Shown here: positions 2,611 through 12,822 of the stretch, piece after piece | Layout of the letters: every line of letters begins with the position of its first letter | Position numbering within the stretch: position 1 is the stretch's first letter | DNA from: Candidatus Latescibacterota bacterium | GTDB taxonomy: Bacteria; Latescibacterota; UBA2968 | Assembly (NCBI GenBank): GCA_038279365.1 | Contig: JAYODI010000120.1 | Coordinates: 1-12,822 of the forward strand | Direction of reading: 5' to 3' | DNA: 12,822 nt | Notes under the pieces: model-generated | What the model saw: the letters and a program-made list of their open reading frames with translations, nothing else | What the model was told of the DNA's origin: nothing | Database searches by the model: none | Translations under genes and position numbers: made by a program

Positions 2611-3867
2611 CTAATTCAAATCCGACGGCATAATATCTACCCCATCGGCCAAATCAATCTCAGGAAACGGATCTTCAAAGTCTGACCAATCCAAGGTCAT
2701 TTCCTCATCCGTTAACAAACACGCATTCAATTCTGCCACAATCATTTCTTCATCCAACTCCACACCAATAAACACAATCTCATTTTTGCGATCCCCCCAC
2801 ACCGGATCCCATGCCTCCCTAACCTCGGGATAAGCATCCAAGACTTCTTCGCGTTCGGCTTCTGGCAAATCGACCAACCAGTCCCCCCCATCTTCTATTT
2901 GAATAGAAGACCCTGCTTGCCCCATAATAATCACAAAATCATTGCGGGTGGCAAACCACAAAAACCCTTTTGAACGCACCAAACCCTCAGGCCAGCGCGT
3001 CCCTATCCAATCAAACAAACGCGCAGGATGGAAGGGGCGATATTGCCGATAGACAAAAGACGAAATACCATAGTCTTCCGTTTCATGAACATGATGATCA
3101 GGCAAATCATGTTCGTGGTCGTGTTCTGCCTCAAGCGCTTGAATCCAACCCGCAGAAGAAGCCACCTTGCCAAAATCAAACAAATGTGTATTCAAAATTT
3201 GAGATGGATCAATACGCCCTTGTTCGGCACGCACAAATATGGCTTCTGGTTGCAATTTGCGCAACATGGCTTCAAGCTGCCCCAAATCGGCATCGGGTAC
3301 CAAGTCGCACTTATTTAAAATCAACACATTGCAAAATTCAACCTGATCCACCAACAAATCCACCACCGTGCGATGATCACCCTCATCCACATTTTGCTTG
3401 CGCTCTAACAACGTTTCGCCAGAAACAAAATCTTGCCAAAACCGATGGGCATCCACCACCGTCACCATACAATCTAACCGACAAACCTCAGACAGTTTAT
3501 GGCTGATCACATCGTCCAACAGCGCAAAAGTTTGTGCCACAGGCATCGGTTCAGAGATACCCGTTGATTCAACCAAAATGTAATCAAAACGACCTTCTTG
3601 TGACAACCGCATAATCTCTTCTATCAGATCTTCACGCAAAGAACAACATACACACCCTGTTGTCAACTCAACTATTTTCTCTTCTGTGCGAGAAAGCGTG
3701 GTTCCTCGTTTAATCAACTCAGCGTCAATATTCACATCGCTCATATCATTAACAATCACAGCCACTTTCAACCCTGCGCGATTGTTCAAAACATGGTTTA
3801 ATACCGTTGTTTTACCCGCTCCCAAATACCCACTCAATACCGTTACCGGAATGCGCGAAGCACTCAT
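2611..3867 (-). CDS. COG0523/CobW-family P-loop GTPase, putative zinc metallochaperone (ZigA/YciC-like)
   Basis: Walker A GYLGAGKTT, VIVND, GCVCC (CxCC metal motif), ESTGISEP, NKCD, His-rich linker HDHEHDLPDHHVHE, CobW_C region (RPFHPARL, RSKG, WGDRKNEIVFIG). GGAG upstream of the ATG. Confidence 0.95.
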   Translation of the reverse strand: MSASRIPVTVLSGYLGAGKTTVLNHVLNNRAGLKVAVIVNDMSDVNIDAELIKRGTTLSRTEEKIVELTTGCVCCSLREDLIEEIMRLSQEGRFDYILVESTGISEPMPVAQTFALLDDVISHKLSEVCRLDCMVTVVDAHRFWQDFVSGETLLERKQNVDEGDHRTVVDLLVDQVEFCNVLILNKCDLVPDADLGQLEAMLRKLQPEAIFVRAEQGRIDPSQILNTHLFDFGKVASSAGWIQALEAEHDHEHDLPDHHVHETEDYGISSFVYRQYRPFHPARLFDWIGTRWPEGLVRSKGFLWFATRNDFVIIMGQAGSSIQIEDGGDWLVDLPEAEREEVLDAYPEVREAWDPVWGDRKNEIVFIGVELDEEMIVAELNACLLTDEEMTLDWSDFEDPFPEIDLADGVDIMPSDLN

Positions 3868-4653: not shown

Positions 4654-4789
4654 AAAATATCATTACTCCAAAAAATTAAGGCCTAATTCCAATATTTACA
4701 TGAAGATATAAAAAAGTCTAAAAATACCCTAAATCTTTTTATCCCACCGTATCTGATCAATCACAATACCCAGCACGTTGTGTTTTTCT

Positions 4790-4817
4790 TTGCCTTGTCA
4801 CCCAAATTCTCTATTTT
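4790..4817 (+). promoter_or_regulatory. Possible sigma70-type promoter for the UxuA-like gene
   Basis: TTGCCT-16 bp-TATTTT in the divergent intergenic region. Consensus match only. Confidence 0.25.
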
Positions 4818-4867
4818 GCACCCTCAACACCTCGTTTAGATCATACGCATCAGAAAGGACACAAGTC

Positions 4868-5854
4868 ATGCCCATTGCCGAACATGACCCCCAGAATATC
4901 AAAATTGGCCACCAAATTCGATGGGATGCCAGTGATAATGACCTTTTGTTTTACCAACAAATAGGGATGCGTTGGGTACAAATGAGTTGGGGCAGAGAAA
5001 CACCCAACCTCGACCATATGCGCCAACTTCAAGAACGCCTTTTAAAATACGACATTCAAATTTACAGTGGCCGACACGACGCCTATCACAGCCAAAAAAT
5101 ACAACTGGGTCAACCTGGTCGTGATGAAGACATCGAAACCTTCGCCATGTTCATTCGCTTTTTAGGTGAGCTCAATATCCCACTGTGTGTGTACGACTTT
5201 CACCCTGCCAACACCTATACCACCCACCGCGTGGAGCGCCGCGGCTATTCGGCTCGTGCTTTTGATCTGCACAAGTTTCGCACAGAAATAGAAAAAAACA
5301 AATTTGAGCGCGAATATCCCGTTGAAGAAATTTGGGAAAACTACACCTATTTCATCAACGCCATATTGCCCATCGCCGAACAAGCCAACGTCACCCTTGC
5401 CCTACACCCCGATGATCCCCCCGTTGCCGTGATGAATGGCGTGGGCAAAATCGTCACCCACTACGAAGGGTATCGCCGCGCCGAAGAGATTTCCAATGGC
5501 AGCAAAAATTGGGGCCTGCTCTTTTGTGTGGGCACCTGGTCCGAAGGCGGTGAACAAATGGGCAAAAATGTGCTCGAAATGATTGAAGACTTTGGTGGCA
5601 GAGGCAAAATTGCCGAAATCCATTTTCGCAATGTCAGTGCCACCATGCCCTATTTTGAAGAAACCTTTCCCGATGATGGCTATGTCGATATGAGCCAAGT
5701 GATGAACGCCTTGCGAAAAGTCAACTTCGACGGTCTCATCATCCCCGATCACATTCCCCAATTTGTCGAAGACAGCAACACCCGTGCGGGTTTGGCCTAT
5801 TGCATCTCCTACATGAGAGCCCTCCTTCGCCAAGCCAACAAAGAGGTGGGATAA
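4868..5854 (+). CDS. Mannonate dehydratase (UxuA) family protein
   Basis: IQLGQPGRDEDIE, YDF, WENYTYF, LALHPDDPP, FCVGT, IHFRNV, ETFPDDG and PDHIP motifs. ATG at 4868 has an AGAAAGGA RBS (preferred over TTG 4778). Substrate not certain. Confidence 0.88.
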   Translation: MPIAEHDPQNIKIGHQIRWDASDNDLLFYQQIGMRWVQMSWGRETPNLDHMRQLQERLLKYDIQIYSGRHDAYHSQKIQLGQPGRDEDIETFAMFIRFLGELNIPLCVYDFHPANTYTTHRVERRGYSARAFDLHKFRTEIEKNKFEREYPVEEIWENYTYFINAILPIAEQANVTLALHPDDPPVAVMNGVGKIVTHYEGYRRAEEISNGSKNWGLLFCVGTWSEGGEQMGKNVLEMIEDFGGRGKIAEIHFRNVSATMPYFEETFPDDGYVDMSQVMNALRKVNFDGLIIPDHIPQFVEDSNTRAGLAYCISYMRALLRQANKEVG

Positions 5855-5871
5855 AACGGCCACCATGCAGC

Positions 5872-5917
5872 AAATAAAAAAATTCACCCCTTGAGCAAAT
5901 TGCTCAGGGGGTGAATT
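5872..5917 (-). terminator. Intrinsic terminator between convergent genes
   Basis: Inverted repeat aattcaccccttgagcaa / ttgctcagggggtgaatt (5881-5917, one mismatch). The A-tract at 5872-5882 gives a U-tract on the minus strand. Confidence 0.8.
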
Positions 5918-5946
5918 AAGCATCAACTTCGCCATATCTTATGCAC

Positions 5947-8666: not shown

Positions 8667-8868
8667 AAAAAAATCCTAAGTTTTGTTTATTTTAATACCG
8701 GTATCCATATTGTGTAGCAATATACACCCTTATCCCAATTTTCCAAGTCTCACCAACACCCTATTTCCCACTTGGCATTCCATCTATTATCTGTTTTATT
8801 TCACCTCAACGCAAACATCCCTGACATAAAAATAAACGAATGGATCAAACTTGTATTCAAGACCCGAT

Positions 8869-10680
8869 ATGTCTCTTTATGCAACAGTCATAAAGCCATT
8901 ACAACCGCAGCTTCTCGTTACCACCTATGTCTTGGCCATGCTCACCTTTTTTATATCCTGTACGCAAGACACCACCATTCCCACACAAACACCAACCCAG
9001 GTCACAACAAAACCGCCCGCGCCAATAAGACAAAAAATACAAGGTGACAGCACCTACAGCAACATCCGCAAAGCCGACTATGTAGGCCCCCAAGTCTGCG
9101 CTGAATGTCACCAAGAAAACTTTAAAAACTGGCAAAAACACCCACACAGTCGCATGAACATGCTGGCCACAGAAGAAACTGTGTTGGGTGATTTTTCGCG
9201 TGCCACACTGGATTATGGCAACAAAAAAGCCGTCTTTCGCAAACAAGACGGCCAGTTCCTTATTGAATATTTCCAAGAAGAAACGCTTCTTCGCCAATTT
9301 CGCATCACCCGCGTGATTGGATGGCGATATGAACAAGATTATGTCGGTTTTCAAACCCACGGTCCAGAACCGTCAGATGCACCCATTTATCAGCAAGAAC
9401 TCCGCGTTGGATTTTCTTACGACATAGACAGACAACAGTGGTTTCCACAAAGTTACCTCGAACCCACCGAATATCCAGGCGCAGAATATAATCCCGATGG
9501 CACATTTCGTCACGATCCATTTAAACCCACCACCGTTGCATTTAACCAACGATGTGCCCGATGCCACAACACATATGCCTATGACCTTCGCCTCTACAAA
9601 ATTTATACACCCGATGGCCTCCTTTCAGGTTTTCCACCTGGCCCTGGGGTTGAACGCCCCGTCATTCAAGCCCTTGCAGAACAAGCGGGTCACCCCAATT
9701 TTGAATCCACCACCACATTGCCTACAGACCAGTTTGTAAGCGTGGGCATCAGTTGTGAAAGTTGTCATTTTGGAGGACGAGAACATGCCAAACTCGGCAA
9801 AGAAATGCGCTTTGTCCCTACACATCCCTTACTGACCAAATGGGCCCCCGATTACAAAACCGCACGCAAAAACCCCTATGTGGTCAACGCCATTTGCCGC
9901 CAATGCCACCACTCAGGTGCCAGTGCGCCAGACAACTGGCCCGATGGATCAGCAGGTGTCAACTCCATGGAAGCCATCGAAATGGATCGCGGTGGTTGCG
10001 TCAGTGAAATGCGATGTACACACTGCCACAATACCCACGTCTCTGGCCCCAAAGCGGGTGGCCCCGACCAACCCGAACATGTAAACACGTGTATTACCTG
10101 TCATCAGGAGCTACAATCAGTACAAGCCGCCAACGCACACAGCCGCCATACCCCCAACCAAGCATCGTGTCTCGACTGTCACATGCCACGCATTGTACAA
10201 GGTTTTGGCATTGCCAATCGCACACACCGCGTCGCATCACCCACCGACCCCAAAATCTTAGGCACCGGCATGCCCAATGCCTGCAACTTGTGCCACCTCG
10301 ACAAATCACTTGCCTGGACGCAAAACGAACTACAAAAAATATGGGGCAAACAAGTGCCCCTTTCACAATCGCTCACAAAACAATTTGGTCCCAAATTCGA
10401 CAAACCAGCAGGAGATGCCTGGCTTTCTCACCCAGTCTCTCTCGTTAGACTCGTCACGGCCTATGCATACACCAACTCTCAATGGAGCAACGACAAACTC
10501 CCTCACCTCATCACATCTTTAAACGATTCCAATGCCTACAACCGCTATAGCTATCTTCAAGACATAGAAAAAATACTCGGTCACAAAATCAGCAACGATG
10601 AATACAGCATCACGGGACCACCCCAAAAACGTGCCAAACAAATTCAAAATTTAATCGCAAAGTATACGCAAAACAAATAA
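8869..10680 (+). CDS. Multiheme (8 x CxxCH) cytochrome c, probable lipoprotein
   Basis: CAECH, CARCH, CESCH, CRQCH, CTHCH, CITCH, CLDCH, CNLCH. N-terminal hydrophobic stretch ends in FISC, followed by a Thr/Pro-rich linker. Start uncertain (TTG 8851, ATG 8869 or ATG 8938). Confidence 0.9.
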   Translation: MSLYATVIKPLQPQLLVTTYVLAMLTFFISCTQDTTIPTQTPTQVTTKPPAPIRQKIQGDSTYSNIRKADYVGPQVCAECHQENFKNWQKHPHSRMNMLATEETVLGDFSRATLDYGNKKAVFRKQDGQFLIEYFQEETLLRQFRITRVIGWRYEQDYVGFQTHGPEPSDAPIYQQELRVGFSYDIDRQQWFPQSYLEPTEYPGAEYNPDGTFRHDPFKPTTVAFNQRCARCHNTYAYDLRLYKIYTPDGLLSGFPPGPGVERPVIQALAEQAGHPNFESTTTLPTDQFVSVGISCESCHFGGREHAKLGKEMRFVPTHPLLTKWAPDYKTARKNPYVVNAICRQCHHSGASAPDNWPDGSAGVNSMEAIEMDRGGCVSEMRCTHCHNTHVSGPKAGGPDQPEHVNTCITCHQELQSVQAANAHSRHTPNQASCLDCHMPRIVQGFGIANRTHRVASPTDPKILGTGMPNACNLCHLDKSLAWTQNELQKIWGKQVPLSQSLTKQFGPKFDKPAGDAWLSHPVSLVRLVTAYAYTNSQWSNDKLPHLITSLNDSNAYNRYSYLQDIEKILGHKISNDEYSITGPPQKRAKQIQNLIAKYTQNK

Positions 10681-10730
10681 GTTCAAACACATTTTATCAT
10701 CAATACACTTCAAATACGAAAGGGGTTAAA

Positions 10731-10940
10731 ATGCCCATTTATGAATACCGCTGTACGGCGTGTGATCACGCATTTGAAACCCTAGTACAAGGCAATCAAA
10801 AACCAAGTTGTCCGTGTTGCAAAAGCAAAAAGCTCCAAAAACAATTCTCAGCATTTGCTGTTAATGGTGCAACTGGCAATGTTTCCTTTCCCTCAGGCGG
10901 TGGCTGAAGCCTTGCAGGTGGACAGGGTGCCTGTTCATAA
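10731..10940 (+). CDS. FmdB-family zinc-ribbon protein, candidate selenoprotein (in-frame TGA at 10905-10907; 58 aa if TGA is a stop, 69 aa if read as Sec)
   Basis: Hand translation: MPIYEYRCTACDHAFETLVQGNQKPSCPCCKSKKLQKQFSAFAVNGATGNVSFPSGGG(TGA)SLAGGQGACS*. MPIYEY-CxxC...CPxC is the family signature. AGGGG RBS at 10721-10725. The gene call is strong; Sec readthrough is inferred. Confidence 0.85.
10918..10938 (+). promoter_or_regulatory. Putative bacterial SECIS element
   Basis: Hairpin GUGGACAGG-GUG-CCUGUUCAU (9 bp including two G-U pairs). It begins after a 10-nt spacer from the UGA and has G/U in the apical loop. Confidence 0.6.
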
Positions 10941-10942
10941 AT

Positions 10943-10980
10943 AAAAAACGACTTGTATATACGATACAAGTCGTTTTTTT
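10943..10980. terminator. Bidirectional intrinsic terminator
   Basis: Perfect 16-bp inverted repeat aaaaaacgacttgtat-atacg-atacaagtcgtttttt with A/T tracts on both sides, between the convergent FmdB-like gene and glgP. Confidence 0.9.
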
Positions 10981-11004
10981 GTGATTAAAAATCACCAGCG
11001 ACGC

Positions 11005-12822
11005 TTATTGCTGTATGCCCACCTTCACATCATCTTGCGAGAGCAATCGAATGGGCACAGGGTCGATATGCCAAATATCATTGCTGTATTCACGAATGGT
11101 GCGATCAGAAGAAAACATGCCACTGCGTGCCGTATTGAGAATCGACATACGCGTCCAATGTGCTTTGTCTGCATAAGCTTTATCCACTCGGGTTTGACAA
11201 TCGACATACGCCTTAAAATCGGCAAACACCATATAAGGGTCGTGATGGAGCAACCCATCTATCAAGGGCCGAAACAAGTCGCCGTCACCCCGAGAGAAAA
11301 ACCCTGCCTGGATCAACTCAATCACCCGGCGCAGTTCTGCATTGCCGTGATAATAATCCATAGGATTATAACCCGTGTTGCGCAAGGCATAAACCTCTTC
11401 TGCCGTCATGCCAAATTGAAAGAAATTTTCTGCACCCACGGCATTGCGAATTTCGATATTGGCACCATCCAAAGTACCAATCGTTAACGCTCCGTTCATA
11501 CAAAACTTCATATTGCCAGTGCCAGAAGCTTCTTTGCCTGCGGTAGAAATTTGCTCCGATAGCTCTGCTGCCGGATAAACCAAATGCGCATTACGCACAT
11601 TAAAATTGGGGAGATAAACCACTTTGAGACGACCATTTATTGCAGGGTCGCGATTGACCATTTCACCCACCGACGTGATGAGCTTAATGATCAACTTGGC
11701 AATGTGATACCCTGGAGCCGCTTTACCACCAAAAATAAACGTGCGAGGCTGAATATCTAAGTGAGGGTTTTTGCGCAAGTGATGATACAGTGCAATCACA
11801 TAAAAAATATTGAGATGTTGGCGTTTATATTCGTGAATGCGCTTCACTTGAATATCAAAAATCGAGTTGGGGTCTATGGCAATGCCTGTGCGTTGTTGCG
11901 CAAAAGCCGCAAATTCGTGCTTATTGGCCAACTTCACCTCTCGCCATTTTTCACCAAACGCCGCATCTTCGGCATAGGGTTCCAACTTTTGCAACTGTTC
12001 CAAATCTTTGGGCCATTCATCACCAACAACATCTGTAATCAATTCCGACAAACGCGGGTTGCTCAACTTCATAAAACGGCGCGGTGTTACCCCATTGGTC
12101 TTGTTGCTAAATTTCTCAGGCCACAATTCATAAAAATCTTTCAACACATCACTTTTGAGCAATTCCGAGTGCAAATTTGCTACCCCATTAATGGCATAAC
12201 TGCCCACACAAGCCAAATGCGCCATACGCACATATCGCCCATCATTCTCATCAATCAGTGACATACGCGCCACCCGATCATCATCGCCCAAAAAGCGCAG
12301 GCGCACCTCATCGAGAAACCGATCATTGATCTCGTAAATAATTTCTAAGTGGCGTGGCAACAAATAACCAAACATATCCACAGGCCAACGCTCCAATGCC
12401 TCTGGCAAAAGGGTATGGTTGGTATAAGCAAAGGTGTGCCGCGTAATCGACCACGCCTCATCCCACGCCAAACCATAATCATCGAGTAACAACCGCATCA
12501 GTTCCGGAACAGCAACCGCAGGATGCGTGTCGTTGAGTTGCACTGTAAACTTTTCGTGAAACTGAGACAGCGGAATATGTTGAACCCGCATAATGCGCAA
12601 CATATCTTGCAAGGAGCAAGATACAAAAAAGAACTGCTGCTCAAGACGCAACTGTTTGCCTTGCACTTGCGTATCGTTGGGATAAAGCACCTTGCTGATG
12701 TTCTCAGATGTCACCTTTTGATCTACCGCACCATAATAATCACCACTGTTAAACACAGCAAAATCAAACGACTCGGGGGCTTCGGCACACCACAATCGCA
12801 ATGTATTGGCCGTGTTGTTGCG
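11005..12822 (-). CDS. glgP: Glycogen/starch/alpha-glucan phosphorylase, 5' end outside the window
   Basis: [66 protein letters not shown] (PLP lysine), GTLDGAN, FSSDRTI. The frame stays open to the window edge. Confidence 0.97.

Follow-up and report, generated by a model that had tools for sequence, protein, structure and literature searches.

A candidate selenocysteine codon in the C-terminal tail of an FmdB-family zinc ribbon from a Candidatus Latescibacterota bacterium

Introduction

Selenoproteins of the FmdB family have been reported in print only from two Global Ocean Sampling (GOS) reads (PMC2398784), and the same pair is repeated in the tables of two reviews (PMC9312934, PMC13188914). 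According to the description in PMC2398784, the GOS proteins belong to a subfamily recognizable by ...GGGWYETDFK..., and their selenocysteine (Sec) lies in the first of two CxxC knuckles, as U-x2-U and C-x2-U at residues 8-11 (supplement file 2 of that paper). Sec close to the C-terminus has been described for other families, namely the UXX-star families NF041114 and NF041211 and the KCU-star family NF033934 (PMC13188914). In the tabulation of that review, only a few residues separate their Sec from the stop, in many cases with a Gly in front of it, and GxGU is listed for NF041211 (PMC13188914). When Sec is located near the C-terminus, the SECIS element has to overlap the end of the reading frame or follow it. 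No paper on a tail Sec in the FmdB family was found in the literature searched. Two papers on an "FmdB selenoprotein" were set aside, for the protein they deal with is the unrelated subunit B of formylmethanofuran dehydrogenase.

Here we describe a small gene in a 12,822-nt stretch of DNA from a Candidatus Latescibacterota bacterium (the whole stretch analysed, hereafter the window). An initial annotation of the window proposed that an FmdB-type zinc ribbon carries an in-frame UGA for Sec in its tail, and mentioned that FmdB-family selenoproteins had been predicted computationally; such predictions do exist, but as described in PMC2398784 their Sec belongs to the first CxxC knuckle instead of the tail. 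The window protein shares the MPIYEY start and the two CxxC knuckles with the GOS proteins, and in both cases the evidence is in silico only, consisting of a TGA/Cys pairing and a bSECIS-like hairpin (PMC2398784). In contrast to the GOS reads, the window protein has Cys at residues 8 and 11, so that there is no U in its first CxxC. Cys also forms its second knuckle, and the candidate Sec stands at position 59, in the C-terminal tail. It also falls in a subfamily different from that given for the GOS reads in PMC2398784.

The FmdB-like gene

The ORF list contains an ATG-started ORF at 10731..10907 (+), which encodes 58 aa and ends in TGA. When this TGA (10905-10907) is translated as U, the in-frame product reads MPIYEYRCTACDHAFETLVQGNQKPSCPCCKSKKLQKQFSAFAVNGATGNVSFPSGGG-U-SLAGGQGACS-stop, the stop being an in-frame TAA at 10938-10940 that follows after 10 codons. 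The arrangement MPIYEY-CxxC...CPCC...SGGG-TGA-SLAGGQGACS-TAA given in the initial annotation is therefore borne out by the ORF list and the translation. The proposed ribosome-binding site was likewise recovered by direct reading, as a purine-rich, Shine-Dalgarno-like AAAGGGG at 10719..10725 (+), 5 nt upstream of the ATG.

Codons 1-58 (10731..10904, +) form the zinc-ribbon coding part, as seen from the ORF list and profile matches. Both PF09723 (50.9 bits vs a cut-off of 34.4, E 1.6e-13) and TIGR02605 (61.2 bits vs a cut-off of 31.3, E 7e-17) score above their cut-offs, in agreement with the FmdB-type assignment made earlier. The family hallmark, MPxYEY followed by two CxxC knuckles, is present as MPIYEYRC-TA-C ... 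C-PC-C, the knuckles being C8-x2-C11 and C27-P-C29-C30, and the MPxYEY and knuckle columns are invariant in our alignments A1 and A3. The TGA is codon 59 (10905..10907, +), the candidate Sec codon by alignment with the first tail Cys of relatives, and is followed by the ten-codon extension SLAGGQGACS and TAA (10908..10940, +), in which Cys68 is encoded at 10932-10934. An NCBIfam scan of the read-through product gave TIGR02605 and a weak match to NF053663 only, with no tail-Sec model among the matches. In an AlphaFold2 model calculated from a 61-row alignment, residues 1-44 are confident and the tail has a pLDDT of 45-54, which permits no structural reading of the C-terminal arm. A PDB sequence search with the window protein returned no match below E 0.6.

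Genomic setting and use of TGA in the window

Upstream of the FmdB-like gene, an ORF at 8851-10680 (+) encodes a 609-residue c-type cytochrome that has eight CXXCH haem-binding motifs and matches multihaem cytochrome families weakly. A gap of 50 nt separates this ORF from the FmdB-like gene, and a simple terminator scan showed no terminator-like site between the two. Given the common strand, the short gap and the lack of such a site, the two genes may be co-transcribed. On its other side, the FmdB-like gene converges on glgP, a glycogen phosphorylase gene whose ORF ends at 11005 (-). The CysS protein of the window is 86-88% identical to proteins of MAGs named Candidatus Latescibacteria/Latescibacterota at NCBI, and about 62% identical to planctomycete proteins. 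Relatives of this CysS with 86-95% identity are encoded on contigs as long as 222 kb.

Two further loci of the window are mentioned for completeness. A COG0523 GTPase is encoded at 2611-3867 (-), between lgt and cysS, and scores 502 bits against a cut-off of 600 bits with the zinc chaperone ZigA model. A 177-residue ORF at 5402-5935 (-) has no family match and is probably spurious; it runs antisense to the 3' portion of a UxuA-like ORF of tentative start at 4778-5854 (+), in which residue 179 is the first one covered by the Pfam match.

TGA is an ordinary stop in the window. The 11 other ORFs taken as genes end in TAA (six), TAG (four) and TGA (one, Lgt). Lgt covers its full Pfam length (3-239 of 240), ends in TGA and is followed by two more TGAs within seven codons. 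No other gene of the window was sensibly merged or extended when TGA was read as a residue. The window (12.8 kb), which appears to be a complete contig, the longest contig of its cluster measuring 12,822 nt, holds no tRNA, hence no tRNA-Sec (selC), and profile scans of 11 ORFs revealed neither selA, selB or selD nor any other family of the Sec machinery. The literature on Sec use in Latescibacteria-like bacteria yielded nothing useful.

Relatives and the shared stop position

The first protein search returned 7 proteins at E <=0.001 among 11 candidates. P0003, P0004 and P0006, with 74-79% identity, end in ...P-x-G-G-G, at the residue just before the TGA of the window, and P0005 continues as ...MGGP-CGTCGDPRGPGACSL where the window has ...SGGG-TGA. 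A search with P0005 then gave 222 proteins at E <=1e-8 among 224 candidates, and the best 120 of the 222 were examined. Among these, 110 of 115 further relatives of P0005 match the complete-tail pattern CGxCGDPRGPG[AS]C. As for the remaining ones, one has a tail with T preceding the last Cys, two have a single tail Cys replaced by Tyr, one ends within the motif on a contig of 988 nt, and one, P0354 (58 aa), represents a fifth truncated form, ending ...LPAGGT.

In their protein sequences, P0003, P0004, P0006 and P0354 all end at the position aligned with the end of the 58-residue window ORF, as ...P-x-G-G-[GT]. The window protein and these four truncated clusters are mutually identical at 35-41 of 46 ribbon positions. 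P0005 is equally close, with 35-40/46 identities to the truncated clusters and 36/46 to the window, and the six ribbons group together in the tree with support of 91/74. Monophyly of the truncated forms with P0005 excluded received support of 68/0 in this tree, which at 46 columns is too short to settle the order within the six-member group. Judged by ribbon sequence, the Cys-tailed P0005 sits in a small clade, the other members of which, as predicted proteins, all stop at its first tail Cys. The four clusters P0003, P0004, P0006 and P0354 each occur on 1 to 14 contigs. All five truncated clusters of the clade are stored with ribbons of 58-62 residues that end here; an N-terminal extension brings one of them to 83 aa.

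The second knuckle of the window protein, C-P-C-C at 10809..10820 (+), contains an extra Cys (C29). In a comparison of 271 family proteins, an inner Cys in this knuckle was present in three only, namely the window protein, P0003 and P0006, and in none of the 266 proteins other than the five truncated clusters. The gain of CPCC in three of these five clusters would fit a remodelled thiol/selenol site. A profile scan of genome contigs with the clade alignment gave at least 80 loci, the best identity being 56% among the matches listed. Reading through TGA in the 81 FmdB-like genes of the 80 listed loci revealed no TGA followed by a Cys tail.

Tails of another kind were seen in P0011, P0021, P0034, P0090 and P0094, which carry Arg/Leu-rich sequences (...RLRSLRRSARS..LLDEL..) instead of the Cys tail. 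These look like the CGxCGDPRGPGAC region translated in another frame, as would result from frameshifts or gene-calling slips.

Comparison of the extension with the family tail

The initial annotation took the UGA to stand in place of a tail Cys. This agrees with alignment A3, whose 61 rows were mostly picked from Cys-tailed relatives: the column of TGA59 is at least 90% Cys, and it corresponds to the first Cys of CGxCGDPRGPGAC, a motif that is almost invariant in the closest subfamily.

The extension was compared with 91 distinct Cys tails in a tail-only test, in which all controls were given the same leading C, and the test was run in 15 combinations of alignment mode, gap cost and statistic. 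Depending on the combination, 0-1 of 256 other open stretches of the window led by TGA scored as high as the extension, as did 1-9 of 784 real 3' flanks of ORF ends in the 80 listed loci, 3-24 of 1000 residue shuffles and 0-3 of 1000 nucleotide shuffles. In addition, a G[AS]C located at most 5 residues from the end of an extension of 5-25 codons, a motif that was picked after the data had been seen, follows 2 of the 504 TGA triplets of the window, including the one considered here, and none of 2388 ORF ends in the 80 listed loci.

A whole-protein HMM built from 43 Cys-tailed homologs gave a different result. The truncated protein scored 82.5 bits vs 85.0 bits for the read-through product with C at position 59, a gain of 2.5 bits. 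Among controls grafted on in like manner, 101 of 1000 nucleotide shuffles, 130 of 1000 residue shuffles and 143 of 1877 real 3' flanks scored at least 85.0 bits, about 8-13% depending on the set, and the result is not significant. This test is blunted by the long deletion that has to be paid for. For the peptide downstream of the TGA, whose conservation would follow from the original proposal and which was judged from a single DNA sequence, that of the window, likeness to the family tail is apparent in the tail-only alignment, far above the controls, but not in the whole-protein HMM. Although the two tests disagree, we read the extension as homologous in sequence to the family tail.

Hairpins downstream of the TGA

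Folding of 10895-10985 predicted three hairpins. The one at 10918..10938 (+) is bSECIS-like, with 9 bp, a GUG loop and -10.1 kcal/mol; it begins 10 nt past the UGA, with 19 nt from UGA to loop, and covers the final codons as far as the first base of the TAA. The bSECIS model in the legend to Fig. 2 of PMC13188914 specifies a loop of 3-9 nt with an upper stem of 4-16 bp, a G in the first two loop positions, and 16-37 nt from UGA to loop with an MFE of <=-7.5 kcal/mol. The hairpin agrees with all four of the constraints taken from that legend (PMC13188914).

As a background, the two strands of the window contain 505 TGA triplets, of which 45 pass this model, 27 have a hairpin at least as stable, and 16 also have G[GU] at the loop start, the tested triplet being included in each count. 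A run allowing loops of 3-14 nt gave 57, 26 and 8. Since the model is this permissive, the support from the hairpin is limited: it counts for about a factor of ten at most, and taken alone is a chance event of about 5-9%. Rfam at gathering thresholds gave no matches in the whole window. At E <=10, the segment 10860-11000 gave 28 weak matches, with no SECIS family among them, all driven by the terminator (terminator ends of sRNAs).

The second hairpin, at 10943..10981, is terminator-like in both directions, with an A run, a 16-bp stem (10943-10979) and a U run. It begins 3 nt past the TAA and not after the TGA, so that the earlier statement that the terminator lies only behind the TAA holds in the fold. 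It is missing from the output of the simple terminator scan, whose rule counted fewer than three G-C pairs in it. Being symmetric and located between the convergent fmdB-like gene and glgP, it could terminate both. The third, a small hairpin at 10897-10915 (+), holds the UGA at 10905-10907 in a four-base loop.

Interpretation of the in-frame TGA

On balance, we lean towards the reading that the gene encodes a 69-residue candidate selenoprotein in which UGA59 is decoded as Sec. The central claim of the initial annotation is partly supported, by the Cys at the aligned position, the tail likeness and the SECIS-fitting hairpin, but it draws no significant gain from the HMM. A Sec close to the C-terminus also has accepted precedents in other bacterial families, UXX-star and KCU-star among them (PMC13188914). 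In the product, residues 1-44 would form the FmdB-type zinc ribbon, joined through a Gly-rich linker to a short C-terminal arm, G-G-G-Sec59-x8-Cys68-Ser. Decoding of UGA59 would depend on SelB and Sec-tRNA, under the direction of the 9-bp hairpin at 10918-10938. The arm can be pictured as a trimmed CGxCGDPRGPGAC tail with Sec for the first Cys and the last Cys kept in its G-A-C-S context; the middle tail Cys and DPR would have been lost, and the new Cys by the second knuckle (CPCC) may replace the lost one. Such an arm might act as a selenol/thiol redox or metal-binding site. The pairing of the TGA with Cys, the tail likeness, the geometry of the hairpin and the stop position common to the clade were observed; we infer the decoding of UGA, the presence of a Sec machinery in the organism and the redox or metal role of the arm. 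Against Sec stand the heavily altered tail motif, both the middle Cys and DPRGP having been lost, the non-significant HMM result, the permissive bSECIS model, the use of TGA as an ordinary stop in the window, the GGG ends of other FmdB proteins, the 81 genes of the listed loci with no TGA followed by a Cys tail, and the lack of Sec-machinery genes within the 12.8-kb window.

If the extension is homologous to the family tail and the TGA stands for a TGY Cys codon, the choice lies mainly between Sec and an untranslated relic. In the latter case, a nonsense change from TGY to TGA would have created a true stop, the ten codons would be the untranslated remains of a Cys tail, and the 58-residue ribbon would work tail-less. 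This would account for the tail likeness and for the alignment of Cys with the stop without any Sec machinery, in a window where TGA is an ordinary stop; decay would permit the loss of the middle Cys and four residues, and the hairpin could have arisen by chance (5-9%). However, the five clusters that share the stop position differ from each other at 5-11 of 46 ribbon positions, which suggests that the stop is old, provided, as we assume, that the stops of the orthologs are the same TGA. Behind an old stop, a neutral relic of 30 nt should have lost its frame, the G-A-C-S motif and a correctly spaced stop. Likewise, the extra knuckle Cys, which three of the five clusters have and none of 266 other proteins shares, suggests thiol chemistry that was remodelled rather than abandoned. 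We therefore consider a relic rather unlikely, although it deserves serious weight.

Alternatively, the TGA may be a true stop and ...P-x-G-G-G a natural, selected C-terminus, the downstream likeness and the hairpin being coincidental. Some 9% of the family representatives (14 of 155) do end in GGG, several of them as ...P-[ST]-G-G-G; three of the 14 come from the clade of the window, and seven have an earlier tail Cys. The single GGG-ending member outside this clade read at the DNA level, L032 from Ktedonobacterales, has GGG-TGA-SVRF-TGA, a plain stop, so that a natural ...P-S-G-G-G end is possible. Coincidence would also fit the non-significant HMM result and the 5-9% background of the hairpin, but it leaves unexplained why the extension stands in the top 0-2.4% of every tail-only control set. 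In addition, what comes after a run of at least three Gly in family tails is most often Cys (17 times), then the protein end (14 times) and Ala (8 times), and such a distribution of Cys and ends is also expected if some of the ends are unread Sec codons. A natural terminus at this position thus seems quite improbable to us. Finally, we regard two more readings as extremely improbable, namely a Cys codon turned into TGA by an assembly or read error, and a genetic code (4 or 25) in which TGA stands for an ordinary amino acid. Neither needs a Sec machinery. However, four more clusters, found on 1 to 14 contigs each, share the stop position, which argues against an error, and the alternative code is rejected on the full-length Lgt with its TGA stop and two further TGAs within seven codons; it also merges or extends no other gene sensibly.

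The Sec reading can be widened to the clade, with low confidence. It may be, though we think it unlikely, that a clade of Latescibacteria-like bacteria changed the first tail Cys to Sec, giving a U-x8-C arm, and added a knuckle Cys, and that part of the approximately 9% of GGG-ending family members are further Sec forms that were not read as such. In our searches, 3228 cluster representatives match the FmdB family at E <=0.001. FmdB-family zinc ribbons are very common, and we know of no established function for them. If the Sec reading is true, every gene caller truncates this 69-residue zinc-ribbon selenoprotein, and standard annotation would do so systematically for such genes; if the wider reading holds as well, they would be among the more widespread types of overlooked small selenoproteins. 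A Sec/Cys pair in the C-terminal motif would mark the tail, and not the ribbon, as the reactive redox or metal-handling site, and would offer a concrete handle on the function of the FmdB family.

Comparison with described systems

By ribbon, the closest relatives of the window protein form an unnamed subfamily with tails of the type CGxCGDPRGPG[AS]C-S-[LM]-[ND] (P0005, 36/46 identical). In both, the linker ends in Gly before the first tail Cys or the TGA, and G-A-C-S stands near the end. The window differs from this subfamily in having TGA for the first Cys and Ala for the second, in lacking D-P-R, in a tail that is four residues shorter, and in the gain of Cys29 in the second knuckle. In place of the three-Cys tail with D-P-R-G-P-G, the window tail therefore reads U-S-L-A-G-G-Q-G-A-C-S, with only the last Cys kept. 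In contrast to the UXX-star and KCU-star families, to which the NCBIfam scan found no sequence match, the candidate Sec of the window lies 10 residues from the end and is carried on a zinc ribbon. If real, the window protein would accordingly add a variant with another position of Sec to a selenoprotein family that has already been predicted, and would not be a new kind of system.
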